A model generated the notes under the pieces. That model did no database searches and was not told where the DNA came from. It saw only the letters and a list, made by a program, of their open reading frames with translations. Below, piece after piece: positions 4,031 to 64,000 of a DNA stretch of 64,000 nucleotides. Every line of letters begins with the position of its first letter. Position 1 is the stretch's first letter. Source of the stretch: Lysobacterales bacterium (GTDB lineage: Bacteria; Pseudomonadota; Gammaproteobacteria; Xanthomonadales; Rhodanobacteraceae); the NCBI GenBank assembly GCA_016707485.1, contig JADJHN010000003.1, positions 363,770 through 427,769 of the forward strand. The letters run 5' to 3'. Made by a program: the position numbers and the translations under genes.

Positions 4031-5182
4031 ATGATGCCGCATCGCACAACCGACAAAGGACCGCACCGGCCTGCCCTGCGCTGTTTCGCCCTGCTGGCGG
4101 CATTCCTGCTGGCGCTGTCGGAATGCGTCCTGGCGGCGCCTTCGCTTGCCGAGGATGCCTATCTCGACATGCGCCTGGTTGCCGCCTCGGATGTGGCACC
4201 ACAGTGGCCGCCGGACCTGGTCATCTCAGGCATCTGGTCCGACGCCTGCCTGCCCTCGGTGCAGCGCTCACGACTCGCCGGCCAGGATCTCGACATCTAC
4301 CTGCGCAGTGAAAGACAAGTCTGCGCACAAGTGCAGACCCCGTTCGAGCTCAAGCTCAATCCGGCGCGCCTGGCCGGGCGCAGCCAGCTGGGACTGGGTG
4401 TCTACCGCGTGCGCCTGTTCCTTGCGCATGACAACGGCAGCTACCAGCTGATCGCCTTCCGCTTGCTGCGTTCCGGTGGCGAAGATCGCCGTTCGCGCCC
4501 TGAAAGCGGCTTCTGGTGGTCGGTTGCAACCGCCAACAACATTCCCGCCCTGCCCGGCAATGGCCTGTCGATCGAACAGCAGGGCGACACGCTGGCGGTA
4601 AGCTGGCTCAGCTATGAATCCGGAGCGCCGACCTGGTATTTCGGCAGCCAGTCCATGCCCGGAAGGATTGCCCGCATTGAACTGTCGCGCATGGTGGGCG
4701 GTGCCGAAGCCTTCTCCGGGCCGAATTCAGCGCCCGGCATCGAACCGGGCCTGGCCCTCAATATCGAGTTCCTGAGTCCGGCGCATGCCAATGCATGGCT
4801 GGTTCGCGGACAACCGGGATCGAACCGCAGCATTGAAATCCAGGATCTCAACCTGGTTCGCCTGCCGTTTGCGGCCGGCAACCCCGGCAAGGACTGGCAA
4901 GGACAATGGGCATTGGTAGTCGGTGATGAGACCGCGGCACGGATCATCGACTTGACCACGGCGGAAACCGCGGACGCGGAAACCTTCCGCATCCGCGATC
5001 GACTCGGCAGCATCAACCTGCAATGCCGCCTTGAAGACGTGGATGGCCATGCCATTGCCTCGTCCTGCAGCCTGGTTGACGGCGCCAGCCTGCTGGCCGA
5101 TTTTGACCAGGTCGGCCGCGATCGGCTGTCCGGTCAGAATGCCGACGGCATGCCGGTGCGACTGGTCCGCCTGCCACGCTGA
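4031..5182 (+). CDS. Secreted hypothetical protein: Cys-pair Ig-like domain plus SGFWW-type beta domain
   Basis: Hydrophobic signal ALLAAFLLALSECVLA; WSDAC...QVC pair; PESGFWW...GNGLSIEQQGDTLAVSWLSYESGAPTWY. Confidence 0.7.
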   Translation: MMPHRTTDKGPHRPALRCFALLAAFLLALSECVLAAPSLAEDAYLDMRLVAASDVAPQWPPDLVISGIWSDACLPSVQRSRLAGQDLDIYLRSERQVCAQVQTPFELKLNPARLAGRSQLGLGVYRVRLFLAHDNGSYQLIAFRLLRSGGEDRRSRPESGFWWSVATANNIPALPGNGLSIEQQGDTLAVSWLSYESGAPTWYFGSQSMPGRIARIELSRMVGGAEAFSGPNSAPGIEPGLALNIEFLSPAHANAWLVRGQPGSNRSIEIQDLNLVRLPFAAGNPGKDWQGQWALVVGDETAARIIDLTTAETADAETFRIRDRLGSINLQCRLEDVDGHAIASSCSLVDGASLLADFDQVGRDRLSGQNADGMPVRLVRLPR

Positions 5183-5191
5183 AGGTGCACT

Positions 5192-5458
5192 TCAGGCCTT
5201 GCTGGTTGCGCTGATCTCGGCCAAACGGCCGCTGCGATCGGCAGCGACCAGGTCATCGAAACCACCGATGTGCGTGCCGTTGACGAAGATCTGCGGCACC
5301 GTACGCCGACCACCGCTGCGTTCGAGCATTTCCTCGCGCCGCGCGGAATCCGTATCCACGCGGATTTCGCTGTAGTCGAAACCCTTCTGCTTGAGCAGGT
5401 TCTTTGCCGCCACGCAGTAGGGGCAGGCTGCCGTGGTGTACATCTCGACCGAGACCAT
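5192..5458 (-). CDS. grxC: Glutaredoxin 3
   Basis: CPYC active site, RRTVPQIF, HIGGFDDL; 88 aa. Confidence 0.95.
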   Translation of the reverse strand: MVSVEMYTTAACPYCVAAKNLLKQKGFDYSEIRVDTDSARREEMLERSGGRRTVPQIFVNGTHIGGFDDLVAADRSGRLAEISATSKA

Positions 5459-5630
5459 GGGATCACTCCGAATTCAACCAATAGCGCCATGAATGCGGGC
5501 CATTCTGCCCGATTCAATGTCCCATCCGGGGCCAGGCGGGCTGCCTGTTGATTTTGCGGGCATCACGTCCACTTAAGGAACGAAGCACTACACTTGCCGG
5601 CACTTCGAGCGTTTTGTGGAGCGCAATGCC

Positions 5631-7338
5631 ATGTCCCGACTGAAATGGCTGCCGATGCTGATGGCCGCGGCATGCGCAGGCCTCGCCGGCGCGCAGGAAA
5701 GCGGCGTGCGCCTGCCGGATATCGGCAGCTCGGCGGCGTCCGCGGTCTCGCCGGGTGAAATGAAGGAATACGGGGCATCGATGCTGCACGAGATGCGCTC
5801 CTACAACATGGTGCTCGACGATCCGCTGGTCGGCGATTACCTGCATGCGCTCGGCTATCGACTTGTCTCGGTCAGCGATCGACCCGATCTCGAGTTCACC
5901 TTTTTCGTTGTCCGCAGCAACGAGATCAATGCCTTTGCCGCGCCGGGTGGCTACATCGGCGTGAACGTCGGTCTGATGAACGCCATGCACACCGAGGACG
6001 AGCTGGCCGCCGTCATCGCCCACGAAATCGCCCACGTCACCCAGCAGCACCTGTTGCGCGCGTTCGAGGATTCGCGCAAGAGCAGCTTGCCGATTGCGCT
6101 GGCCATGCTCGGGGCCCTGGTGGCGACTTCGGGCCGCAGTGACGATGCCAGCCAGGCCGTACTGATGAGCGGGGTATCGCTGATCCAGCAACGGGCCATC
6201 AATTTCACCCGCTACGACGAGATCGAAGCCGATCGCGTCGGCATCCAGAGCCTGGCGCGCGCCGGTTACGAGCCATTGGCCATGGCCGAGACGTTCGCGA
6301 CCATGCAGCGCGTCATGCGCGTGAACGGTGTCGACATCCCCGAGTTCCTGCGTTCGCATCCGGTCGATGTCAACCGCATTGCAGACGCCAAGGCCCGTGC
6401 CGTCAAGCTCGGCGAAACCGCCGGCATTGCCCGCGCACCGACTTGCGACTGGCGGCCCTGGCACGATGGATGCCAGCCTGCCGCGAACGGGCTCGACGCT
6501 GGATCTGTCCTTGCCAAGCGGGCCATCCGTCGCAGAGGCCGCAATCACCTCGACCCGTGGCAACTCCTTCGAGCTGATGCGGGAACGTGCGCGGACGCTG
6601 AACGCCGATTCGGCAAACGCCATCGTTCGCTATTACGCCGATGAATTGCAACGCAACCCGGACTCGAACACGCTCGCCAATCGCTACGGCCATGCCCTGG
6701 CCCTCGTGCGTGCGCGCCAGCCGGACAAGGCCATCGTGGAATTCGGCAAGCTGCTTGCCAGTGACCCGGACAACTCGGTGTTCCAGTTGGGCATGGCCGA
6801 TGCCGAGGACCAGGCCGGCAAGCGCACCTCGGCGTTTGCCCGCTATGAAAGGCTGAGTGCCAACTTTCCGGGCAACCGTGCCATCGCACTGGCCTTCACG
6901 GATTCCCTGCTGGCTCGCAACGACGCCAAATCAGCACTGCGCGCCCAGGATCTGTTGCGCCCCCTGCTCAGCCGCTACAAGGAAGATCCCGATCTGCAAC
7001 GCAGCTTCGCCCGTGCCAGCGAGATTGGTGGCGACAAGATCCGTGCAGCCGAAGCCTATGCCGAATGGGCGTTCCTCAATGGCCGCGCCGAGGATGCCCT
7101 GAACCAGCTCAAGGCCCTGTCCAGCAAACAGGAACTTACCTATTACCAGCGCGCCCGCGTCGATTCGCGGATCACCGCGATGACCCCGATCGTGCTCGAC
7201 CTGCGCAAGCGTGAGCGGCGCAATGCCGATGACGAGAAGAATGGAGGCTTTTCGGCATCGGCGGTGAATCCCATGCACTGTCGAACACATCGCTGCCCGG
7301 GCGTGTCATTGAGTCGTAACATATCTCCGCTGCAATAG
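5631..7338 (+). pseudogene. bepA: M48 metalloprotease/TPR chaperone BepA, split by a frameshift near 6400-6570 (true lesion or assembly error)
   Basis: First frame: signal peptide, INAFAAPGG, HEIAH zinc motif, EADRVG, SHP. The TPR half (FELMRERAR...RARVDSRI) continues in the +1 frame (ORF 6328-7338). Confidence 0.8.
7303..7324 (+). promoter_or_regulatory. Candidate Pho box upstream of phoB
   Basis: GTGTCATTGAG TCGTAACATAT: GTCA and GTAA half-sites 11 bp apart, about 60 bp before the phoB start. Confidence 0.55.
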
Positions 7339-13943: not shown

Positions 13944-14636
13944 ATGACCACCCTCTTCATCTCCGATCTCCATCTCGATCCGTCGCGACCGGAAATCATC
14001 GCGACCTTCCGGCGCTTCATCGCCGAGGAAGCGGTCAACGCCGACGCGCTCTATATCCTCGGCGATCTGTTCGAAGCGTGGATCGGCGATGATGCCGACG
14101 ACGAAACAGGCAAGCAGTTCGTGGACGCCATGCGCCCACTGCGCGAGGCACGCAAGCCCTGCTTCTACATGCACGGCAACAGGGATTTCCTGCTTGGCGA
14201 ACGCTTTGCAAGGGAATCGGGCATGACCCTGCTGCCCGACCTCTCCGTCATCAACCTGTACGGCACACCCACCCTGCTCATGCATGGCGACAGCCTGTGC
14301 ACCGACGATGCAGCCTATCAGGCGTTTCGCAAACAGGTTCGCTCAGCCGAATGGCAGAGACAGTTTCTTTCGCAAGGCATCGAAAAGCGCCAGGCCTTCG
14401 CCACGCAAGCGCGCAACGAAAGCCAGCGCCACACCAGGGACAGCAGCAAAGCGGCCATCATGGACGTCAACCAGCAAGCGGTCGAAGCCGCGATGAAATC
14501 AGCCAAAGTCCGGCGTCTGATCCATGGGCACACGCACCGACCAGCGACCCATTCGTTTGACTTGAACAACGCTCCCGCCACTCGAATCGTGCTGGGGGAT
14601 TGGTATGAGCAAGAAAGCGTAATGCGAATCCCCTAG
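13944..14636 (+). CDS. lpxH: UDP-2,3-diacylglucosamine diphosphatase
   Basis: ISDLHL, YILGDLFEAWIGDD, MHGNRDFL, HGDSLCTDD, IHGHTHRP, VLGDW. Confidence 0.96.
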   Translation: MTTLFISDLHLDPSRPEIIATFRRFIAEEAVNADALYILGDLFEAWIGDDADDETGKQFVDAMRPLREARKPCFYMHGNRDFLLGERFARESGMTLLPDLSVINLYGTPTLLMHGDSLCTDDAAYQAFRKQVRSAEWQRQFLSQGIEKRQAFATQARNESQRHTRDSSKAAIMDVNQQAVEAAMKSAKVRRLIHGHTHRPATHSFDLNNAPATRIVLGDWYEQESVMRIP

Positions 14637-14699
14637 CGAGCCGGAATTCACCAACTCGCCAAAGAGGCATGCACGCGTTGTGTGCTGGACCCGCGAAGG

Positions 14700-16109
14700 C
14701 TACTTGGCAACTATTTTTTGCGGGCTTGTGAACTGCTGCTTGCGACCCTTGTTGTAAACGATGTTGATGTAATACCAATACGTATTACCCGATTCCGCAG
14801 ACGAATCTCTCCACTGGTAGATCGACCCCGCTTCGGGATCTCCATCCAGCCGCTCCAGAATCTTGTCGTTAACCCTCGAATATGGCCCAGTTTCTGCCAC
14901 GGAACGATAGATCTCGTAACCGTAAATATCGTACTCATTGGTCACCTGCCATTTGAGCAGCGGACCAGTTCCATCTGGCGTCGACATTGTCGCTGGAGCT
15001 TTGGCTTTCTCGGTCGTCTTCGTAACGGATGACTGCAAAACCGAAGAAATTGACTTAGATTCCTCCTGTGCGGCCTTGAAGTCTTCTTCGAGACTCCGGA
15101 TTTGGGTATTCTTGCCAATTCCGATCGCACCAAAACGAACAACCAGATTCTGTTTGTAAGACGGCAACTCAATTTCAAGCGTTCCGCCCGTAGTACCGAG
15201 CAAATTCATCGGCGGATAGGCGACCTTGACATTCTTGCACGACTCGTTCTTCGGAACGCAATCATTAACCGAGGTGAACACCTTCATTCTGCTTTTTGCG
15301 ACAACTTTGCCAATATTCAGTGGTTTGCCAGTTACATCGTTCAGAACAAGCATCATCTCGGCCGCCTGCCCCTCTCTCAAGAGACCAAAGTCGAGTGGAT
15401 CGGAACTCGGTACGACTGAACCGCGCGCCTGCCCCTTCAAGCGAAACGCAACAATAGGCTGCAGCGGGTTGTCCGTTCGGATTAGCAGCTTCTCGTCGAA
15501 GCTCGACCAAGGCGCATCAGCCCTACTGTGCAACTCAAGTGCCCCGCCATTTCGGACAATTTTCACGTCGAAATAGGCGCTCGGCTTTTCGACGCCAACC
15601 AGGTGCAGCGTAGCCCCGGGCCTGACATCGATCGGAATCACTTTCTCAATTGGCTGGGCAAGCTTGATGGTGTTGAAATCGATGCCCAGGCCGTCGGGGG
15701 AAACCAGCCAGTCTGCAAACCCCCGCACGACGAACCCATCAATTGGGCCAGGCTGGCCTTTCACGAACACGTCGAAATAGTGGGCAACGCGGCCAACTTC
15801 CTCTGTCAACGAAAAATCAAGTTCGGCCACAAATGACTCGCCTGCATTTACCTGCGATGGCGTAAATCCGATCGTTACCTTTTCTGTCCCACGTGGCACG
15901 ATCCTCTCAATCAACATCGAAGTACCGGTAAGGTTTCGTGCCACTACCTGTGCGTGCACCTTAGCAAACGGATGAGTTTGGCCAATTTCAGTGCCGGTAA
16001 ATTCGAACTTGCCAGTTGAATGTGCCTGAGTTGGAACAAGCGTGGCTGCTTGGCCGGCAGGAAACGCCAAAAGGAGTACCACTATGAGGAGAAAATTGGT
16101 GGGTTGCAT
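14700..16109 (-). CDS. Secreted protein: tandem DUF1573/PapD-like Ig domains plus a C-terminal FN3-like beta-sandwich that lacks a clear first strand
   Basis: Signal MQPTNFLLIVVLLLAFPAGQA; repeated LDFG...L.I..V and IRTDNP..P..L.G motifs; C-terminus LLKWQVTNEYDIYGYEIYRS...YQWRDSSAESGNTYWYYI. Family names are from recall, not a search. Confidence 0.7.
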   Translation of the reverse strand: MQPTNFLLIVVLLLAFPAGQAATLVPTQAHSTGKFEFTGTEIGQTHPFAKVHAQVVARNLTGTSMLIERIVPRGTEKVTIGFTPSQVNAGESFVAELDFSLTEEVGRVAHYFDVFVKGQPGPIDGFVVRGFADWLVSPDGLGIDFNTIKLAQPIEKVIPIDVRPGATLHLVGVEKPSAYFDVKIVRNGGALELHSRADAPWSSFDEKLLIRTDNPLQPIVAFRLKGQARGSVVPSSDPLDFGLLREGQAAEMMLVLNDVTGKPLNIGKVVAKSRMKVFTSVNDCVPKNESCKNVKVAYPPMNLLGTTGGTLEIELPSYKQNLVVRFGAIGIGKNTQIRSLEEDFKAAQEESKSISSVLQSSVTKTTEKAKAPATMSTPDGTGPLLKWQVTNEYDIYGYEIYRSVAETGPYSRVNDKILERLDGDPEAGSIYQWRDSSAESGNTYWYYINIVYNKGRKQQFTSPQKIVAK

Positions 16110-16165
16110 ATGAAAAAGCCCACGTGACAAGCACGTGGGCTCTAGTTCCTCAATCAGACGATCAA

Positions 16166-16693
16166 TTATTCGACAGAGAAATTCTGCAGAGCGACTGGCA
16201 GACGGGGTACAGCGATCGTGACCGGGCCGCATTGTCCGACAGTGAAGGATGTCACCGCCAAGTAGTATTGGCCAGCAGCAAGTCCTTGCACCGAAATTGT
16301 TTCACTACCGCCAGCCGGATTGCTATCTGCCTCGACTGGACATGGTGCTGCTCCCGAGCACGCACCCTGCATCAGAGCAGCATACATGTCATAAGTAGCC
16401 GAAGTAGTAGAAATCACGAAATTCTGTTCCGCTGCGGTAGCGCCGCCAATTGCTCCCGGACCCAATGTCACAGACCAAATGGCGTCTGTTGCCGAGCTTG
16501 TTCCCGCAGCACTGCACATGACAGCCAACTGATTGGTGACACCGCAAGTGTCGAAATTAGTAACCGCAGTTGTCAAACTCTGCGGTCCGGCCAACGAGAT
16601 TGCACCTGCACTAGCTGTGCATACCTGTGCAAATGCGGATCCAGTTGCAAGGCATCCAACCATCGCAAGCGAACATACCAAATAATTCTTCAT
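16166..16693 (-). CDS. Small secreted Cys-rich PPC-like protein ending in LPVALQNFSVE
   Basis: GGAG RBS; signal MKNYLVCSLAMVGCLATGSAFA; six Cys in the mature chain; GLAAGQYYLAV; terminal PVxLxxF motif. Confidence 0.8.
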   Translation of the reverse strand: MKNYLVCSLAMVGCLATGSAFAQVCTASAGAISLAGPQSLTTAVTNFDTCGVTNQLAVMCSAAGTSSATDAIWSVTLGPGAIGGATAAEQNFVISTTSATYDMYAALMQGACSGAAPCPVEADSNPAGGSETISVQGLAAGQYYLAVTSFTVGQCGPVTIAVPRLPVALQNFSVE

Positions 16694-16741
16694 AAAGTCA
16701 CTCCAATGAAATTTAAAAGCAAACAAGTTATCAGTTAGTTA

Positions 16742-17494
16742 TTAGTGACCAATGAAAGTCTGGCGGCGCGAATCGAACTGGTCGAAATAGACATAGCTGG
16801 TATTGGTGAAATTCTGGCGGTAGAAGGTATTCGCGGTCGAAAAACCGAGTGCAACCTGGTCAACACCGGTCCAACCAGTATTTGCCAAGTTGGTGAACGT
16901 GCCAGTCGGGGCACCTTCAGTTGTTGACGCAGACGCGTTGGTAACCCAGTACTTCATCGTTGCCGCCGCGCCCGTAACCAAATCGATTTCAACGCGATTT
17001 GCGCCCGCCTGATTCGGAAGTGGAATATCAAGTGTTTGGTACTGACTTCCCTGATTGGTATCACCAACGAACATACGCAAGATTGCCGCTGATCCATTAC
17101 CAGTCAACAGCGCAAAGACCATTCGGTTGTTGCCACCGGCGGGAGCCGTCGCACCAAGAACAGAAAACGCGATTACGTTTCGATTCGCTTGAGTCAAACC
17201 AATGCCCGATGCGTCAATAATGAATTGAGCACGATAACGGGTCTCATTCGCCGGAGTCTGATCGAGTACAAAAGCCTTTGAGCCAGTCGAACCGTTCTGG
17301 TTCAGCGCAACTCGCAGCCTGCAAGCTGTGGAGTCATAACCACCTGTCACGCTGGTTGCCGTGCCTTGCAGCGTCGAAACCAAGCTCCAAGGCGGGGAAA
17401 GGCTGGCCGGGCACTGCGCCATTGCGGCACCGGCGGCACCGAAGCCCACAAAACCGAGAACTGCCAGTGACAGTGTTTTCATTTTGCTGTTCAT
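16742..17494 (-). CDS. Secreted Ser/Thr/Gly/Asn-rich ConA/jelly-roll-like protein ending YFDQFDSRRQTFIGH
   Basis: GGAGAG RBS; signal MNSKMKTLSLAVLGFVGFGAAGAAMA; motifs VLDQTPANETRYRAQFIID, RVEIDL, VDQVALG. Confidence 0.8.
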   Translation of the reverse strand: MNSKMKTLSLAVLGFVGFGAAGAAMAQCPASLSPPWSLVSTLQGTATSVTGGYDSTACRLRVALNQNGSTGSKAFVLDQTPANETRYRAQFIIDASGIGLTQANRNVIAFSVLGATAPAGGNNRMVFALLTGNGSAAILRMFVGDTNQGSQYQTLDIPLPNQAGANRVEIDLVTGAAATMKYWVTNASASTTEGAPTGTFTNLANTGWTGVDQVALGFSTANTFYRQNFTNTSYVYFDQFDSRRQTFIGH

Positions 17495-17583
17495 TAAAAC
17501 TCTCCAGGATTGTCCGGGCGGGGCGGGTCCCCTGTCCCCTTTGCGCATTGCAGAATGGTCTTGCCGATGCCTGAACCTGTCGA

Positions 17584-17613: not shown

Positions 17614-18018
17614 CAAGTTCCGCGCAGAAGTTTGACCGACTTGTCAGAACCGAGGGTGGCCATGACGTTGCTGATCGGGCCGGCATTTCTGAATCGCTAC
17701 CGGTTTCCGAGCCCCAGGCTTTCCACGTCCACGCCGGATGAGACGCAGCGCGGGACTGGATCCGGACACCTGCCACGATTGTGGCTGATCCGCCACGCAC
17801 GGCCGCACGTCCAGTTGAGGCCGCGATCATGATGATCCGGCCCTCAGCGGCCGCAGGCCCTGGAGGCAGCAAATGCATGGATCGTTGTCCCTTGGCGGGA
17901 TTCGTTGCATTAAATGGGGCTGGTTGGGCTTGCCGGCCGGGCTGGAAGCTTGCTGCGTGATTGACATCGATGCGCGTCGCTGCCGAGAATCGCGCCCCCT
18001 TTGAGGCCATTGCCGCCC

Positions 18019-18747
18019 ATGTCCAGCCTCGCCCCCGCTGATTGTCTGGCCGTGATTCCCGCCAGGGACGAGGTTGCCACCGTGGCTGAAGTGGTGCGGG
18101 GCGTGCGCGAATCCCTGGGTTGCCGGGTGCTGGTGGTCGACGATGCCAGCACGGATGGCACGGCCGCGGCGGCGCGCGCTGCCGGTGCGGAGACGTTGAT
18201 GTTGCCGATCGGCCTCGGTGCCTGGGGTGCGTGCCAGGCAGGAATCCGCTATGCAGCCAGGAATGGATTTGCCGGAGTCATCAGCCTGGATGCGGATGGC
18301 CAGCATCAGCCGGAATTGCTGCCCTTGTTGTTCGAGGAACATGCGCGAAGCGGGGCAAATGTCGTTATCGGCACGTGCATCGAGCGCCTGAGCCTGCCAA
18401 AGCGCATTGCGTGGCAATATCTGCGCCTGCTGACCGGCCTGCCCTTGCGGGATTTCACCTCCGGCCTGCGCCTCTATGATTGCCGGGCAGTGGAGGTGCT
18501 TGCCGCGCCCGAGGCCAGCCTGCTCGATTTCCAGGATGTCGGTGTGCTCATGTTGCTTGCAGGGAAAGGAATGAGGATTGTCGAGACGCCAACCTTGATG
18601 CAGCCGCGCCAGGAGGGTCATTCGCGCGTTTTCGCTTCGTGGGCGGTGGTAGCACGCTACATGTTCCATACAACCATCTTGTGCATCTCGCGCCTCGACC
18701 TCGGCCTGCGCTCGACCAGGGTCGCGGCAAGGGGAGCGCAATCCTGA
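18019..18747 (+). CDS. GT2 glycosyltransferase (polyprenol-phosphate sugar synthase-like)
   Basis: VIPARDE, LVVDDASTDGT, LGAWGACQAG, LDADGQHQP, DFTSGLR. Confidence 0.9.
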   Translation: MSSLAPADCLAVIPARDEVATVAEVVRGVRESLGCRVLVVDDASTDGTAAAARAAGAETLMLPIGLGAWGACQAGIRYAARNGFAGVISLDADGQHQPELLPLLFEEHARSGANVVIGTCIERLSLPKRIAWQYLRLLTGLPLRDFTSGLRLYDCRAVEVLAAPEASLLDFQDVGVLMLLAGKGMRIVETPTLMQPRQEGHSRVFASWAVVARYMFHTTILCISRLDLGLRSTRVAARGAQS

Positions 18748-55496: not shown

Positions 55497-56588
55497 CTAT
55501 TCCAGTGGTGCGCCGAGAGCAGCAGCGGCGTTGGCCATCCAGCGCAATTGCACGCCCTGGCGCGTATCGTAATCCGACCCGGAATAACCCCACCAGTCCC
55601 AACATGCCTTTGGATTCAATGGCGCGTAGCTTGCGCGGGTCTGAGGATATAGCACGACCAGGTGCCGGGCATCTGCCCAGCGGTTGTAGCCGGCATCGCG
55701 GGCGAATGCTTCGCCGACGGCATCGGCATTCTGCTGGCAGCCATGCAGGGCGATATGCAGGCCGCAGGTTTCGCCGGCCGCACAGGATTTCGGCACATAG
55801 ACAAAGCCGATGTCGGCCAGCATCGCGTCCTTTCCATCCGGCAGATAGGCCTTTTGATCGAAGCGGCGCAGCTCGCCCGCAGCAGTTGTCGGCGTAGCCG
55901 GTTTGTCAGCATAGAGGGCGGCCAGCAGTTCGCCGGCACCGTCGAACCCGCACTTGCCGATATACGGCGCTTCGCTGTCCGTGCAGGCGGTGCCGGTGGC
56001 TTCGGTCGGGAAGGTATGTGCCATCTCGCGCGCGTTGTCTTCGACGACCTGCGCGACACCGAGCTTGCGATAGAACTCCGCCGCAGCCGCGCTGATTGCC
56101 GTGCCCACCGTCGCATCGAGCGTGCCGTGCATGACAAACACCCTGTCGTCGGCCACGCCTTCAAGCGGCGCAAGCGCACCACTGCCAGCCCGCGATCTTG
56201 CATTCTCGACCAAGGCATCGACATCAGGCGGGTTTTCCCCTGCCGGATTGAGGCAGCGCGACAGCGCGGTTTCAAGGTTGCCTTGCGCACAGGCGTACGG
56301 CCCCCCGGCGATCATGGCGACCCCGGCGACATGGCTGGAGAAGGCCATGTGAACCTGGGTCGCCATGTACGCACCGGACGACAGCCCCGAAACCGTCGTC
56401 CGCGTTGCATCCAGGTTGAGCTTGGGCAGCGGCATTCCCGCACCTGCAGGCTTGCTGCCGCACGCGCCCAGCCCCATCCCGAACAGGCAAGCCAGGGACG
56501 TGGCGAGTACCAGCCTGGCCGGCAAGGACACGCGCCCCCGGCCCGATGCCTTCTTCGTCACGGCGCACAAGCGAGTCGGGTCCGTCAT
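55497..56588 (-). CDS. phaZ: Extracellular PHB depolymerase-type esterase, predicted lipoprotein
   Basis: VSGLSSGAYMA lipase box, LHGCQQ, VLYPQT, NPKACWDWWGY; lipobox GLGAC. Confidence 0.8.
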   Translation of the reverse strand: MTDPTRLCAVTKKASGRGRVSLPARLVLATSLACLFGMGLGACGSKPAGAGMPLPKLNLDATRTTVSGLSSGAYMATQVHMAFSSHVAGVAMIAGGPYACAQGNLETALSRCLNPAGENPPDVDALVENARSRAGSGALAPLEGVADDRVFVMHGTLDATVGTAISAAAAEFYRKLGVAQVVEDNAREMAHTFPTEATGTACTDSEAPYIGKCGFDGAGELLAALYADKPATPTTAAGELRRFDQKAYLPDGKDAMLADIGFVYVPKSCAAGETCGLHIALHGCQQNADAVGEAFARDAGYNRWADARHLVVLYPQTRASYAPLNPKACWDWWGYSGSDYDTRQGVQLRWMANAAAALGAPLE

Positions 56589-58825
56589 CAGAAGTTGTAC
56601 CGCGCGGTCAGATAGTAATTGCGTGGCATGGCGTAATAGGCGGTCTGGATATTGCCGACGCTGCTGAATTCCTGGGCGTCGGTCTTGTACAGCTTGTCGG
56701 TCAGGTTACGCACGCCGGCACGCACCTGCCACTTGTAATCGGCCGAATCCCAGATTCCGAACAGGCCGACGGTGGTGAAGGCGTCCTGGGTGAGCACATC
56801 GCGGTTGTCGACGCTGAGCCAGCTCTTGGCGCGATAGGAAACATCGCCGCCGAAGGTCAGGCTGCCGGCATCGCCAAGTCCGAAGATATGGCTGGCGGCG
56901 ATGCGCGAGGTCCACTTTGGTGAAAATGGCACATGGTCATGCAGGCCGGCCAGCGCCGGGACCGTGGCCACGCGCGGATCGTTGAACTCGCCATAGCGCG
57001 CATCCAGCCAGCCGACCTGCGCCGACAGGCGGGTGCCTTCGCCAACCATGGCGACGCCTTCGAACTCGATCCCATCGACCTTGACCTTGGCCGCATTGAG
57101 CACGGGGAAGCTGCCCACGACCTCGCCGCTGACACGGGCCTGGAAATCATCGTAGTTGCTGTGGAAGGCTGTGATGTTGCCGAGCAGGCGGCCGTCGTCC
57201 GAGCTCATCTTCAGGCCCATTTCATAGGTCCATACGGTCTCCGGATCGAATTCCGGGCGGGTCGCTTCGGCCACCGCATTGGCACGACCATTGAAGCCGC
57301 CGGACTTGAAGCCCTTGTTCGCCGAGACATAACCCATCACCCGATCCGAGAACGCCTTCTGCAGGCTCAGTGATGGCGTGACCGCGGTCCACGACTTGCT
57401 TGCGTCGAAAGCCACGGTTCCATTCAGGGCGGCAAACGCCGGGCCCCAGAACGTGCTGGTGGTGCGGTCGTAATCCTTGGTCTCGCGCGTATAGCGCACG
57501 CCGGCACCGAGCGTCCACGACGGTGCGAATTCCCAGTTGAGCTGGCCATAGGCCGCCGTGCTGCGCGTGGTCAGGTCGTCGCCGATCGTGCGCAGGAAGG
57601 TGATGGGCGAACCGGCCAGGGCATACAGGTCATCGGCGTAGGCCTCCTGGTTGGAAGGCACATGCTCGCGCAGGAAATACAGGCCGTAGGTGGCGTGCAG
57701 GTTGCTGCCGTTGTCGTACTGCGCCTGCAGCTCCTGGCTGAACTGATCCTGGTGGAAGCCGACGAAGACATCACCCAGTTCGAATTCGGAAGCATCGATG
57801 TCGATGAAGGACTTGCTGTCGAGTTCGCGGTACGCAGTGATGCTTTTCAGCGACCACGCATCCGACAGCGACCAGGTCAGCGCGGCCGAACCACCCTTGT
57901 GGATCAACTTCTGACCCTTGTCCGGTCCGAGCGAGGTGCGCGTGCGATAGTCGTAATCCTCCGACGGCGAGGGATGCAGCACGATCGCGCCCAGCGCGAC
58001 GTCGGTCTGGATCAAGGGCGCTTCCGGATTACCCAGGGTGAGGGCGTTGTCCTGGTGAGTGTAGTCGAGCGAGAACGCCGCCTTGAAGCTGTCGTTCGGG
58101 TTGCCGACCAGCTTCAGGCGAATGGCCTGGGTGTTGTCGTCGTTGTAATGCCGGCGCGTTTCCGGATCCTTCACGTAGCCATCATTGCCACTGCTGACGA
58201 TCGCCGCACTGAGTCCCCAGGTGTCGCTGAGCGGCGTTGCCGCATAGGCCTTGGCCTCAAGCAGACCGAAGCTGCCGGCGCTGATTTCGACACTGCCGGC
58301 AGTTTCCTGGCCGGGATCCCTGGTCACCACCTTGATCGCGCCACCGGTCGAGTTCTTGCCGTACAGGGTGCCCTGCGGACCGCGCAACACTTCGATGTGG
58401 TCGACGTCATAGAGCTTGAACAAGGCTCCCTGGATGCGCGAGTAGTAGACGTCGTCGACGTACATGCCGACACCTGGATCAAACGTCTGCAACGCATCCG
58501 GCTGGCCGATGCCGCGAATGAACACGTTGACCGACGATGCCGAGCCGCGCCCTTGCACGATGTTCATGTTGGGCACACTGCCTTGCAGGCTGTCGATGTT
58601 GTTGGCCTGCATCTCGACCAGATCGGCATCGCTGAATGCGCTGACGGCAACGGGCACTTCCTGCAGGGTTTCCTCGCGCCGGCGCGCGGTGACCACGATT
58701 TCGTCGAGGCGTGCAGTCTCCTTTTCGGAAGGATTGGCAGGCTCCGGCGTGCCTTGCTGGGCCTGCGCCATTGCCGACATGCCGACGAGCAAGCCGATGG
58801 CAAGACTCAAATGCGTACGTTTCAT
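56588..58825 (-). CDS. TonB-dependent receptor
   Basis: Signal peptide, EIVVTARRREE TonB box, IEVLRGPQGTLYGKN, ends ARYNF; TGATG-coupled to the depolymerase. Confidence 0.95.
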   Translation of the reverse strand: MKRTHLSLAIGLLVGMSAMAQAQQGTPEPANPSEKETARLDEIVVTARRREETLQEVPVAVSAFSDADLVEMQANNIDSLQGSVPNMNIVQGRGSASSVNVFIRGIGQPDALQTFDPGVGMYVDDVYYSRIQGALFKLYDVDHIEVLRGPQGTLYGKNSTGGAIKVVTRDPGQETAGSVEISAGSFGLLEAKAYAATPLSDTWGLSAAIVSSGNDGYVKDPETRRHYNDDNTQAIRLKLVGNPNDSFKAAFSLDYTHQDNALTLGNPEAPLIQTDVALGAIVLHPSPSEDYDYRTRTSLGPDKGQKLIHKGGSAALTWSLSDAWSLKSITAYRELDSKSFIDIDASEFELGDVFVGFHQDQFSQELQAQYDNGSNLHATYGLYFLREHVPSNQEAYADDLYALAGSPITFLRTIGDDLTTRSTAAYGQLNWEFAPSWTLGAGVRYTRETKDYDRTTSTFWGPAFAALNGTVAFDASKSWTAVTPSLSLQKAFSDRVMGYVSANKGFKSGGFNGRANAVAEATRPEFDPETVWTYEMGLKMSSDDGRLLGNITAFHSNYDDFQARVSGEVVGSFPVLNAAKVKVDGIEFEGVAMVGEGTRLSAQVGWLDARYGEFNDPRVATVPALAGLHDHVPFSPKWTSRIAASHIFGLGDAGSLTFGGDVSYRAKSWLSVDNRDVLTQDAFTTVGLFGIWDSADYKWQVRAGVRNLTDKLYKTDAQEFSSVGNIQTAYYAMPRNYYLTARYNF

Positions 58826-60849: not shown

Positions 60850-61927
60850 GTGGGGCTGCGCATTACCGATTTGCTGCAGTTATCTAGCCTCAAGACGGTA
60901 TCGGTTATTTCGCAAGACGACGCGTACGTCGTCGTCGCTGAGGGGCGGATGGTCCCGAAAGCGTGTCCCGATTGCCGATCTGGCCGGCTGTACGGCCACG
61001 GGACCAACGGGCAGACTTATCGCGATACGCCGATCCACGGCAAGACGGTCCAGATCACGGTGAACCGCAGGCGATATCGGTGCCAGAATTGCGGCAAGAC
61101 GCTGTTCGATCCGATCCCAGACTTAGACGCCAAGCGGCTTGCCACCAGCCGCTTGATTGCCTACGTGCGAGCCAACTGCTTCCAGGAGCCGTTTGCCGTC
61201 GTCGCTCGCCGCGTGGCAATGGACGAGAAGACAGTTCGCCAGATTTTCGGAGATTACGTCGAGGAACTGGAATCGACGATTCGCTTCGTGACGCCGCGCA
61301 TTCTTGGCATCGGCGAGATCAAGATCATCGGCGACTATCGCGCCATGATCACGAACATTGAGCACCATACCCTGTTTGACATGCGGGAGAGCCGCAAGAA
61401 GCCGGAGCCGCTCGCCTACTTCAAGACGCTGCGCGACAAGGACCGGGTCGAGTGGGTGGCGATGGACATGTACCACGTCTATCGGCAAGTGGTTCAGGCT
61501 ACGTTGCCGCAGGCGCGTAGTACCACCCGAGCAGAAGCCGGTGTTCAAGGATTTGCTTTCCGCAATGACAAACTGGTCGAACGAAATCTTCTCCTTCTTC
61601 GAGCAACCGATCACCAATGCCTATACTGAATCCGTCAATAGTCTGGCCAAGGGGATGAATCGCATGGGACGTGGCTACAGCTTCGATGTGATCCGGGCAC
61701 GCATGCTTTACGACCCCAAGGCGCGCAAGATGGGATCGGTTCAGGTGGCCGAACCCGTTCGGACTTCAGATGCCGGAAATCATGTCGAGTTCATGACGGC
61801 GAACTCGATGAGTCGACCTGTGAGGATGCATCGGCGCACCATCGAGTATGGGGCGCATATCCCAACCTTGGTCAAGCTGCTCGATTCTGGGTACTTCGAG
61901 CAGCCAGGCACAAATGAGACGCCGTGA
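60850..61927 (+). mobile_element. ISL3-family transposase remnant with an internal deletion and frameshift near 61518
   Basis: Zinc finger CPDC...RRRYRCQNC, RILGIGE, VAMDMY; then jumps frame to TNAYTESVN...GRGYSFDVIRARML. The central segment is missing and terminal IRs were not identified. Confidence 0.85.
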
Positions 61928-61965
61928 TGCGCTGGGTAGGCTCGCTCTCAATCAAGGAGACGAAG

Positions 61966-64000
61966 ATGAAACGCGTGTACTTCAAGGGTGTAGCAGCCTT
62001 CATTTTTGCATTATATGTGCAGATCGCTCATGGGTTCGTTGACCCGCCGGTCATTTTGCCGGTTGATCCTGTCGCAGGGCAGGCGCTGTCTGTCAGTGTC
62101 CGATCGGGTATTTGCGACGGCTTCTTTTCGAACGAGCCAGCGCAGGTCATTCGCACGGGCAACTCGGTTCGTGTCGTGCTTGAAGGCGTCCACGAGGAAG
62201 ATCCGCTTCACTGCATCATGCCTGACTACACGAGCGTCTATCCGATCGGCTCTTTCGAGGCGGGCTCCTATACGTTCCAGATTGACAGGCACTATGTACC
62301 ATTTGGCGGGACCAGCACCACGGAGACGCTACGCACGCTACAGGTTGTCGTCGCTGGAACGCCGAATGTTCCCCTTCCAGCGATTGGCCCCATGGCGGCG
62401 CTTGCCGTTGTGCTCGCCTTGTTCTTTGCCGCCGCATTCCGACTGCGGCGGCACCATGTCTCCTTGATCGTGATGCCGTTTCTTGCGCTGCTGCCGTTGT
62501 TCAGTAATGCGCAGGAGCCGGACCGCTACATCAAGGTACTTGTGTCAATCGAGCCCGGCGCTCCGACCGCGTACGACCTGGTTCACTACCTTGACTTCTC
62601 GCCCCCAGCCGGGCCTCCACCCCTGGAGGCATTCAGCGCCATACCGCCGGCGGGAGTGAGCTACTTGCTGCCGTTGCGCGCGTCTGGCGATTTTCTGGCC
62701 TACCTGGAGGCCAATCCGGAATCCGTGCGCGCCCGTCTCGAGCGCTATGTGCTTGTCGCTTATACCGCCCAGACGGACTATGAAGCGGCCCTTCAGTCAC
62801 TTCGATCCGACCCGTACGTAATGGCGGCCTATCCGTCGTTGGAAGTTGAATTCTCGTCCGCGTCGCTTATCGATTTCGGGATTGAGGATCAAGCGCACCT
62901 GGGATCTGGTTTGCAGGGAATCCCGGCGCAGTACGGGTGGGATTCCCTCAACATCGGTGCAGCGTGGGAACTCGCTGGCGGCTACGCCATGATCGGAAGC
63001 GCCGACTCAGGCTTGGCCGTTGCGCATCCCGCACTGCGACAGTTCTCGGCGACAGGTCAGTACCTGGGAGGGAACTTCATTCCAGCGTCTTCGCTTGATC
63101 TTGGAGACGGACCGGGTTTCTACGACGCCGATGTTAACGAAGTGACGCCCATGCCGTTGCCTGTGAATTCTCCGTGCAATCCGAATGGCCTTCCTGCCGT
63201 TGAAACGTCAAGAGCCGGACACGGAAGCCATGTGGCCGGTTTACAGGCTGCAAATGGCGCGAGTGGGCTCGGTGTGAAGGGCACCTGCAAGCATTGCGGG
63301 ATAGCGATGTGGAAGATTGCCAGGAATCAATGCATTGGTGGGCTGGTTCTTCCTCGTGCAAATTCCGATGTGCTCGAACCAGCGCTCATTCACATGACGG
63401 ATACAGGTTCACAAGTTGTTAATCTCAGCCTTGGAGTTCAACGATCGCCGCAATCGCCGGAGACCGAATGGTGTCCAACGCATCTCAATGACCCATGGTG
63501 CCTGGGGTTGGCTCATGCGGAATTCCGAGGTGCGGTGATTGTCGCATCGTCGGGGAATCATCGTGATCGCTTGCAGTTTCCGGCAATGGAGTCGAGTGTG
63601 ATCGCGGCCGGAGGCTTCGATAGCAATCACGCATTGTGGGACGACTCGCCGGGCAGTACGACGTTTTGCCCGAACCCGCCGAGCAGCCTGGAGTGCGGTT
63701 CCAACTACACGAAGAACCTGGGTGAGGCGCGGCAGGAGTTGATGGCGTCGGCTAAATCCGCCTTTTCTACGGTGTATCCCGGTAAAGACTATTCAATAGT
63801 CTCTGAGTGCGGCGACTCGTTTGGCACTCCCATGAGCGACGGGTTGGGCCTATGCACGGGAACATCAATGTCAGCGCCACAGATAGCTGGTGTCGTTGGG
63901 ATCCTCCGCTCCATCAATCCTCTCGTGATTGCGGGCAAGCCGGTCCTGCAGTTCGGAGACGTGGTGGGCATTCGCACGGTTCTTGCGCAGACCACAGTGG
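61966..64000 (+). CDS. S8 subtilase with N-terminal Ig-like domain, internal CTERM-like anchor and second signal peptide; 3' end beyond the window (not in the ORF track)
   Basis: AAGGAG RBS; frame read by hand with no stop through 64000; triad ADSG (63001), GHGSHVAG (about 63220), GTSMSAP (about 63859); oxyanion SSGN. Confidence 0.9.
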   Translation, partial: MKRVYFKGVAAFIFALYVQIAHGFVDPPVILPVDPVAGQALSVSVRSGICDGFFSNEPAQVIRTGNSVRVVLEGVHEEDPLHCIMPDYTSVYPIGSFEAGSYTFQIDRHYVPFGGTSTTETLRTLQVVVAGTPNVPLPAIGPMAALAVVLALFFAAAFRLRRHHVSLIVMPFLALLPLFSNAQEPDRYIKVLVSIEPGAPTAYDLVHYLDFSPPAGPPPLEAFSAIPPAGVSYLLPLRASGDFLAYLEANPESVRARLERYVLVAYTAQTDYEAALQSLRSDPYVMAAYPSLEVEFSSASLIDFGIEDQAHLGSGLQGIPAQYGWDSLNIGAAWELAGGYAMIGSADSGLAVAHPALRQFSATGQYLGGNFIPASSLDLGDGPGFYDADVNEVTPMPLPVNSPCNPNGLPAVETSRAGHGSHVAGLQAANGASGLGVKGTCKHCGIAMWKIARNQCIGGLVLPRANSDVLEPALIHMTDTGSQVVNLSLGVQRSPQSPETEWCPTHLNDPWCLGLAHAEFRGAVIVASSGNHRDRLQFPAMESSVIAAGGFDSNHALWDDSPGSTTFCPNPPSSLECGSNYTKNLGEARQELMASAKSAFSTVYPGKDYSIVSECGDSFGTPMSDGLGLCTGTSMSAPQIAGVVGILRSINPLVIAGKPVLQFGDVVGIRTVLAQTTV

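Follow-up and report, generated by a model that had tools for sequence, protein, structure and literature searches.

In the closest described sorting system, that of IPTL-CTERM (TIGR04174) and exosortase H (XrtH, TIGR04177), an I-P-T-L motif, a membrane helix and an arginine cluster form a tripartite signal, and membership requires that this signal is located at the extreme C-terminus. The signature of IPTL-CTERM is IPTLxxWG. The NCBI curators have in addition named a model 'midcut-by-XrtH protein' (NF033207), which states an XrtH-type signal in mid-protein, and the idea of such an internal signal is therefore already known to them. The gene analysed here is an open reading frame (ORF) at positions 61966 to 64000 on the forward strand of a stretch of 64,000 nucleotides (nt) from a Lysobacterales bacterium (contig JADJHN010000003.1; the whole stretch is called the window in the following). 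It encodes a predicted S8 family protease (subtilase), which is preceded in the same frame by a small secretory unit with a comparable signal. As in IPTL-CTERM, this signal is composed of a proline motif ([VAL]-P-[AT]-L-[GS] instead of I-P-T-L), a membrane helix and an arginine cluster, the module to which it belongs is also found at the true C-terminus of proteins of about 170 amino acids (aa), and XrtH genes occur in the clade, among others in one carrier genome. Unlike in IPTL-CTERM, the signal of the window is internal, the xxWG part is absent, most members score below 20.5 bits, and the copy of the window does not match the model. The likeness to NF033207 is the mid-protein position; NF033207 differs in being a 175-position model of another small protein without attached protease, and even the best match of our family stays below its cut-off.

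The second signal peptide within the ORF also has precedents. The cytochrome b-c1 precursor FbcH of Bradyrhizobium japonicum is a single bacterial ORF that is split at an internal signal peptide into two membrane/periplasmic proteins. These are a pair of subunits of a respiratory complex and, unlike in the ORF of the window, neither a sorting signal nor a protease is involved; to our knowledge, close relatives do not alternate between a fused and an unfused FbcH. Our literature search for this bacterial precedent returned only papers on viral polyproteins. In such polyproteins of eukaryotic viruses, internal signal peptides, for example at the hepatitis C virus (HCV) core-E1 junction and in the flavivirus structural proteins, are cut by host signal peptidase (PMC5402940, PMC7601889). 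Compared with these polyproteins, the ORF of the window shares the succession of an anchor segment and an in-frame signal peptide that restarts translocation, with several products per ORF, while it is bacterial, would depend on Sec and signal peptidase I, consists of two (in relatives sometimes three) units, and has an upstream unit that ends in a dedicated sorting signal and not in a plain anchor. Secreted pre-pro-subtilases (S8) of the Lysobacterales are built from a signal peptide, a propeptide, the S8 domain and a C-terminal extension, as are the shorter homologues described below, whereas the window form has an extra complete secretory unit before the signal peptide. The ingredients, namely S8 pre-pro-proteases, IPTL-CTERM/XrtH sorting, the 'midcut-by-XrtH' concept, viral internal signal peptides and the bacterial FbcH precursor, are known. 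The papers searched contain no description of a conserved bacterial family of secretory polyproteins in which the basic tail of a sorting signal is the n-region of the next signal peptide and which occurs naturally in fused, unfused and tandem form.

Two secretory units in one reading frame

Judged by its sequence, the ORF has arisen naturally by the in-frame fusion of two secretory units, which are found elsewhere as separate neighbouring genes. The first unit is a small protein with a predicted immunoglobulin (Ig)-like domain, its own signal peptide and a putative tripartite, IPTL-CTERM-like exosortase-H signal of the C-terminal type; the second is a predicted pre-pro-subtilase. Cleavage of the single precursor probably gives two exported proteins. 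The frame comprises 678 codons and is free of stop codons up to the end of the window. In the following list, homologues with the same order of segments are called long forms, and homologues that start at the second signal peptide short forms; predictions of structure are from AlphaFold2.

61954-61959, forward strand: ribosome-binding site AAGGAG, 6 nt 5' of the ATG at 61966, read directly
61966-62034, forward strand: first signal peptide, residues 1-23, ending in IAHG before FVDPP; the boundary A-x-A/G before F-x-D-P-P is kept in the family alignment, and an N-terminal helix is predicted
62035-62358, forward strand: small Ig-like beta-sandwich domain, residues 24-131 (108 aa), with Cys50 and Cys83, from the predicted structure and the family alignment
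62374-62388, forward strand: sorting motif LPAIG, residues 137-141; IPTL-like family consensus [VAL]-P-[AT]-L-[GS]
62389-62439, forward strand: membrane-spanning helix TM1 within the sorting signal, residues 142-158, from hydropathy; helix predicted at 142-164
62440-62457, forward strand: basic cluster RLRRHH, residues 159-164, aligned with the MRRYR and LARRR n-regions of short-form signal peptides
62458-62511, forward strand: h- and c-regions of the internal signal peptide, residues 165-182, VSLIVMPFLALLPLFSNA, from homology to the signal peptides with which short forms start
between 62511 and 62512, forward strand: predicted signal peptidase I site after Ala182 (S-N-A before QEP), from the alignment
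62512-62985, forward strand: putative protease propeptide and linker, residues 183-340, beginning QEPDRYIKVLVS...GAPT, conserved in long as well as short forms, where it follows the signal peptide immediately
62986-64000, forward strand: Peptidase S8 catalytic domain (Pfam PF00082), continuing past the end of the window
63004-63006, 63220-63222 and 63865-63867, forward strand: putative catalytic residues Asp347, His419 and Ser634, from the S8 motifs

The original prediction had described a signal, a domain with a cysteine pair, a motif-membrane-basic segment, a second signal, and a prodomain with the subtilase triad in one uninterrupted frame, and the translation has all of them where they had been placed. 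Hydropathy analysis gives two hydrophobic segments. The part of the S8 domain within the window (residues 341-653) belongs to PF00082 with 81.1 bits against a cut-off of 21.8, and a full-length relative (P0001) reaches 83.7 bits. The DSG, GHG and GTS contexts of the predicted triad appear in this order, within SADSGL at 345, GHGSHVAG at 418 and GTSMSAP at 632, and residues 183-340 are taken as the propeptide from their position before the S8 domain.

The fusion is neither an error of the assembly nor restricted to this genome. The junction (62200-62700, 501 bases) is present without a single difference or gap in contigs of eight independent metagenome runs, which are activated-sludge or wastewater metagenomes from different studies. 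The homologue search yielded 60 proteins, 38 of which are long forms (29-57% identity) that derive, where named, from metagenome-assembled genomes (MAGs) called Dokdonella, Rhodanobacteraceae or Xanthomonadales. A missed stop codon or a frameshift between the halves, named beforehand as an outcome that would speak against the original prediction, is therefore ruled out, as is a decaying pseudogene. In addition, neither a conserved in-frame methionine or start codon nor a Shine-Dalgarno sequence is found before the second hydrophobic stretch, and an independent translation start of the protease is thus rejected as the explanation.

The nature of the second hydrophobic stretch is revealed by about ten short forms (P0021, P0033, P0034, P0039-41, P0043, P0045, P0047 and P0049) of about 820 aa, which lack the first 165 residues and start with an ordinary N-terminal signal peptide. 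These signal peptides align column for column with the internal segment of the long forms; for example, MRRYRPALLLIVLACVPFGARA before QSA in P0033 corresponds to ...RARRSALWLVALASLPLGARA before Q in P0014 (in a longer excerpt, ...LRARRSALWLVALASLPLGARA before QDA). The arginine cluster that closes the upstream segment therefore takes the position of the basic n-region of the short forms. In alignment columns of the 38 long forms, position -1 of the predicted cleavage site is alanine in 36 (in the other two the alignment is slightly shifted), position -3 is in every case a small residue from the set A, V, T, S, G and L, position +1 is glutamine in 31, and a helix-breaking proline or glycine is found at -7 to -4 in 33. 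The distance from the last basic residue to the predicted site has a median of about 16 residues in the family. In the window, residues 159-182 likewise have a basic n-region, an h-region within the 10-15 residues usual for Sec signal peptides, a helix breaker and small residues at -3 and -1, with RLRRHH followed by VSLIVMPFLALLPLF and by S-N-A before Q. Thus, the proposal that the basic cluster doubles as the n-region of a new signal peptide with an SNA site agrees with the column alignment to the short forms and with the -3/-1 rule, and the features of the second hydrophobic stretch are, as predicted, those of a cleavable Sec signal peptide rather than of a permanent membrane span.

The upstream unit (N-module) exists in its own right. 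A profile of the module (alignment A2) found 1587 relatives at E<=1e-3, 226 of them at E<=1e-30, among 1.84 billion representative proteins, and 185 complete instances were analysed. In 58 of these the protein ends at most 15 residues past the arginine cluster (e.g. ...TAVPALTRTGIALLIAAILAAGCITTRRRPKTAK), which gives stand-alone proteins of about 165-175 aa, while 78 instances continue into a second signal-like segment (93 under a later rule that does not require the propeptide motif). The remaining instances have other tails, several being misclassified long forms or seeming artefacts of gene calling. The stand-alone genes have genuine stop codons within their contigs and are often arranged in tandem arrays (L088, L089, L090). 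The claim that the first internal segment is a sorting signal of the kind that normally ends a protein is borne out by these 58 instances. The predicted structure of the module, calculated with the family alignment, has a mean pLDDT of 94 and is an eight-strand beta-sandwich followed by one long helix. With this fold, and with Cys50 and Cys83 invariant in the family, the label 'Ig domain with a Cys pair' is fair. No Pfam or NCBIfam model covers the N-domain, and Foldseek found no match to it in the PDB at E<=1e-3. The nearest PDB matches are the TRAP beta and delta subunits (E about 2e-3, TM-score about 0.4), which have the generic layout of a beta-sandwich plus one transmembrane (TM) segment. 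Neither this comparison with the PDB nor the sequence gives any hint of an inhibitor or chaperone role, which had been considered possible for the small domain.

The search for homologues with the two halves as separate genes was also successful. Linkage of module genes to a short form was verified by sequence in three loci, and the modules, one to three per locus, are located directly upstream and on the same strand. In L006 a double module (P0064, 332 aa), whose two modules are joined through the same junction of arginine cluster and signal peptide, is separated by 243 bp from an 827-aa protease with its own ribosome-binding site and signal peptide. Three module genes of about 171 aa precede the protease P0047 in L091, and in L092 the module gene overlaps the start of the protease by 40 nt in a different frame. 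The short forms of L006 and L091 have their own start codon after an intergenic gap. On the P0040 contig a 169-aa gene occupies the module position upstream of the protease, judged by gene size only. Intermediate states are found as well: in L001 one separate module gene is followed by a fused long form, and P0061 and P0066 contain two modules and the protease within one ORF. In the fused tandem modules (P0064, P0061, P0066) each module has its own signal peptide. Other module arrays are located away from any protease (L089, L090), and the module family is therefore wider than its pairing with this protease, which is frequent but not universal. In a plain neighbour-joining tree of the protease bodies only, which has no support values and whose 'short' entries include some gene calls truncated at the N-terminus, the long forms and the true short forms interleave several times, which indicates repeated fusion or fission.

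Two of these loci contain further details. In L092 (3960-4060) the module frame lacks the usual arginine cluster while the protease frame supplies GRKR, and a one-base insertion or deletion would turn the arrangement into a long form; the overlap stems either from a fission that happened very recently or from a sequencing mistake in this contig. In L088 a divergent 527-aa protein with a Rhomboid domain is encoded at 4198-5781 on the reverse strand and adjoins a stand-alone module gene (5840-6343). So-called 'rhombosortases', which are of the Rhomboid type, act on a different class of C-terminal sorting signals, and the neighbourhood in L088 may or may not be a coincidence.

The C-termini of the proteases have common characteristics, too. 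In P0001 (1003 aa) the S8 domain is followed by a DUF5648-like stretch, TSP3-like aspartate repeats and the end ...IFQNGFQ. All full-length proteases close with TSP3-like DSDGDG repeats and then ...SDPC..C..(I/V)F.(N/D)GF(Q/E/D) as final residues. The SDPC...GF-type ending also follows directly on two N-modules in P0062, which has no protease body, and the stand-alone module P0142 ends in ...LADGFE. The shared GF(Q/E/D)-type ending is perhaps another C-terminal signal or a recognition tag that has so far escaped notice.

The sorting signal and exosortase H

To assign the sorting signal to a class, the motif-TM-basic segments of the 38 long forms and of 55 stand-alone modules were scanned against all 18,950 NCBIfam models. 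The 'midcut-by-XrtH' model NF033207 was matched by 22 long forms and 22 stand-alone modules (best match 1.1e-7, 32.1 bits against a cut-off of 45), and the matches span profile positions of about 27-80 out of 175, comprising the motif, the TM segment, the basic cluster and part of the next hydrophobic stretch. IPTL-CTERM (TIGR04174) was matched by 13 long forms (E<=10) and seven stand-alone modules (E<=1), the best being P0013 with 25.1 bits, the sole homologue seen above the cut-off of 20.5. Any other sorting-signal model was matched by at most six of the 38 long forms. The best and only recurrent matches are thus those of the exosortase-H class, which had been guessed beforehand.

The segment of the window has the tripartite IPTL-type layout, with LPAIG, a hydrophobic stretch of 17 residues and RLRRHH, but lies at residues 137-164 of about 1000 and not at the extreme C-terminus as membership in IPTL-CTERM requires. 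Across the family, the distance from the motif to the first basic residue has a median of 20 residues. The proline of the motif is kept in 53 of 58 stand-alone and in 87 of 93 fused modules, and this equal conservation means that an internal position leaves the constraint on the motif unchanged. From these features, the sorting signal would work like an XrtH signal, although most copies fall short of formal IPTL-CTERM membership by the curated thresholds and none belongs to the midcut family.

A clear XrtH (TIGR04177, 183.9 bits against a cut-off of 86) is encoded by a 167-aa gene 1.9 kb downstream of the protease on the P0014 contig. With this XrtH as query, 263 XrtH-encoding stretches were found in a search with one genome per GTDB species. 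The 80 of these that are listed carry mainly Dokdonella, Rhodanobacteraceae or Lysobacterales names, with a few further genera of the Lysobacterales and some MAGs that bear only the label Proteobacteria or Gammaproteobacteria; loci of the cultured D. fugitiva and D. ginsengisoli are among them (L018, L021, L035). One locus (L071) shares the phoB-phoR-ppk synteny of the window with 73-80% amino-acid identity. When the sludge assemblies were compared with the XrtH gene of L071 at 80% likeness, a recurrent XrtH-like contig type was found whose flanks translate to ...GSFIVSIERG and FGLFFGFLA. In seven runs its depths are 10, 37.1, 25.9, 20, 38.7, 12.1 and 6.95, and those of the window contig are, in the same order, 10.7, 33.8, 15.6, 21.6, 30.6, 9.8 and 7.0 (Pearson r=0.94, n=7). 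That an XrtH gene belongs to the window's own population is only suggested by this co-variation.

The XrtH loci have neighbours of their own. In many of them (L008-L087) a response regulator with about 37% identity to the PhoB of the window is located about 0.4-0.9 kb downstream of XrtH, and a gene resembling histidine kinases follows about 4-5 kb further on, which looks like a conserved XrtH neighbourhood. A two-component pair also accompanies the XrtA/PEP-CTERM systems, of which this arrangement is reminiscent. One XrtH locus (L032) contains a weak module-like gene. A scan with a regular expression revealed no other IPTL-type genes near XrtH, the pattern probably being too strict. A conserved neighbourhood of XrtH and the protease was considered and ruled out, L008 being the only one of the 80 listed XrtH loci with this arrangement.

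Proposed processing of the precursor and rival explanations

The arrangement could be processed as follows. The first signal peptide would start Sec export of the small domain until TM1 halts the transfer, which would leave the arginine cluster in the cytoplasm. The same cluster and the next hydrophobic stretch would then act as a signal peptide in the reverse orientation and restart export for the protease. Signal peptidase I would cut after S-N-A (Ala182) and free the pro-protease, while the small protein would be left on a hairpin of TM1, loop and signal peptide, a longer version of the normal sorting tail. If the genome encodes exosortase H, this enzyme could cut the hairpin-held small protein at LPAIG, as it would with free-standing IPTL-type proteins, and thereby remove the anchor of the small domain. 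What the end of a C-terminal sorting signal needs in charge and topology is also what a signal peptide needs at its start. The loss of the stop codon and spacer between the two genes would therefore still yield the same two products, which would explain the occurrence of both states among close relatives. The cleavage steps, the involvement of XrtH and the role of the small domain are the parts of this explanation that we infer. That the two products arise through signal peptidase is likely. The complete scheme, a two-unit fusion that is split by signal peptidase I and whose small protein is then processed by exosortase H, appears rather probable, and the participation of XrtH taken for itself is slightly favoured.

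Several observations weigh against the scheme. The window's own sorting segment matches neither TIGR04174 nor NF033207 and stays below the reporting threshold, and the segments of most homologues score below the curated cut-offs. No exosortase was found in the 64-kb window by NCBIfam scans of ORFs with several membrane spans or by tblastn with three XrtH sequences, and the protease is located within 10 kb of XrtH in only one of the 80 listed XrtH loci (L008, identical to the L001 locus with P0014). The depth correlation comes from seven samples only, one of which is off by 1.7-fold, and an eighth run is ambiguous. Our search found no paper on an experimentally characterised activity of XrtH, on the function of IPTL-CTERM or on 'midcut' proteins, and the cleavage is so far predicted from sequence. 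Furthermore, the protease tree lacks branch support. The points concerning XrtH speak in favour of a variant in which signal peptidase I splits the precursor and frees the protease without any exosortase, and TM1 is a stop-transfer anchor that holds the Ig-like domain on the periplasmic face through the hairpin: the motif region of the window scores with neither XrtH-class model, the window contains no XrtH, and in 79 of the 80 listed XrtH loci XrtH is not linked to the family. This would be the literal version of the 'anchored domain' of the original prediction. However, [VAL]-P-[AT]-L-[GS] just outside TM1 is more than 90% conserved in free and fused modules alike, and a mere anchor would have no need of it. 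Since in addition the sole recurrent hidden Markov model (HMM) matches are to the XrtH class, and XrtH occurs widely in the clade and is encoded by at least one carrier genome, we regard the plain anchor as rather unlikely.

It could also be that the precursor is not cut at all and remains in the inner membrane with two spans, the Ig-like domain and the (pro)protease both being periplasmic, so that the enzyme would be a membrane-tethered subtilase. The two hydropathy segments and a topology with the N-terminus out, TM1, a cytoplasmic arginine loop, a second span and the C-terminus out would fit a stable hairpin, and the predicted status of the cleavage leaves room for it. However, the second segment is short, the site following the last basic residue at a median distance of about 16 residues. 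It has the proline or glycine at -7 to -4 in 33 of the 38 long forms and an (A/V/T/S/G)-x-A c-region before Q in nearly all members, and is homologous to the N-terminal signal peptides of the short forms. The repeated switches between fused and unfused states are also hard to square with a change between a soluble and a tethered enzyme each time. A permanently tethered protease therefore seems improbable. Least of all does the ORF seem to be a functionless accident, either a missed stop codon or frameshift in the assembly or a pseudogene decaying beside an insertion sequence (IS) element, or to have its protease translated from an internal start codon. A broken ISL3 transposase is indeed located directly upstream, the internal segment contains in-frame TTG, GTG and ATG codons, and a few relatives resemble recent or erroneous joins (the linker with a retained methionine in P0066 and the out-of-frame overlap in L092). 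Against this stand the junction that is identical in the eight assemblies and tight in the 38 homologues down to 29% identity, the lack of a conserved internal start codon and Shine-Dalgarno sequence before the internal segment, and the intact triad motifs and S8 match. These explanations are already largely refuted, and we consider them very improbable.

Returning to the fusion of two separately processed secretory units, a more general proposal can be made tentatively, although we hold it to be slightly less probable than its opposite. Dokdonella-type bacteria would make true secretory polyproteins of one to three XrtH-sorted Ig-like modules and a subtilase, each unit having its own signal peptide, that are split by signal peptidase I and XrtH, and the small modules would be dedicated partners of the protease, be it as substrate, surface dock or inhibitor. 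Fusion and fission would then be nearly neutral and recurrent because the arginine cluster of one unit is the n-region of the next.

Genomic surroundings and biological meaning

Directly upstream of the protease gene a broken transposase of the ISL3 family is found at 60850-61927 on the forward strand. The ORF 60850-61629 corresponds to positions 2-203 of NF033550 and an overlapping ORF in another frame (61358-61927) to positions 307-369. Because the match is split over two frames, the transposase is frameshifted or internally deleted. The third-position GC content of the protease ORF is 0.65 compared with 0.72-0.82 in most neighbours, which hints at an acquisition by transfer. Elsewhere in the window, about 3 kb at 14500-17500 have a GC content of 51-54% in an overall 62.5%, and gene picking based on GC3 found no confident ORF there except one of 103 aa at 15528-15836. 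This region is possibly a foreign island beside the glycosyltransferase at 18001-18747; no tRNA was found anywhere in the window. At 55497-58825 on the reverse strand an extracellular type-2 short-chain polyhydroxyalkanoate (PHA) depolymerase, which scores 351 bits with NF050059 (cut-off 280), adjoins a TonB-dependent receptor. Located 3-6 kb upstream of the gene for the protease, this pair is nothing unusual, though it could be worth attention in an organism from sludge.

In general, the family conservedly breaks the rules by which exosortase-type sorting signals are defined and searched as C-terminal and signal peptides as N-terminal features, and its proteins are therefore annotated only as 'S8 family peptidase' or 'hypothetical protein'; the polyprotein-style combination is not recognised by current annotation. 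It would be a rare bacterial case of polyprotein-style biogenesis via internal signal peptides. If the secretory-polyprotein proposal is true, C-terminal sorting signals can work from internal positions. With the fused, unfused and tandem arrangements that occur in nature, a test of exosortase processing from such a position is already at hand. The modules also represent a defined and abundant candidate substrate family for exosortase H. The host organisms are frequent in activated sludge, and both exosortase-sorted proteins and secreted proteases matter there for the biology of flocs and biofilms.

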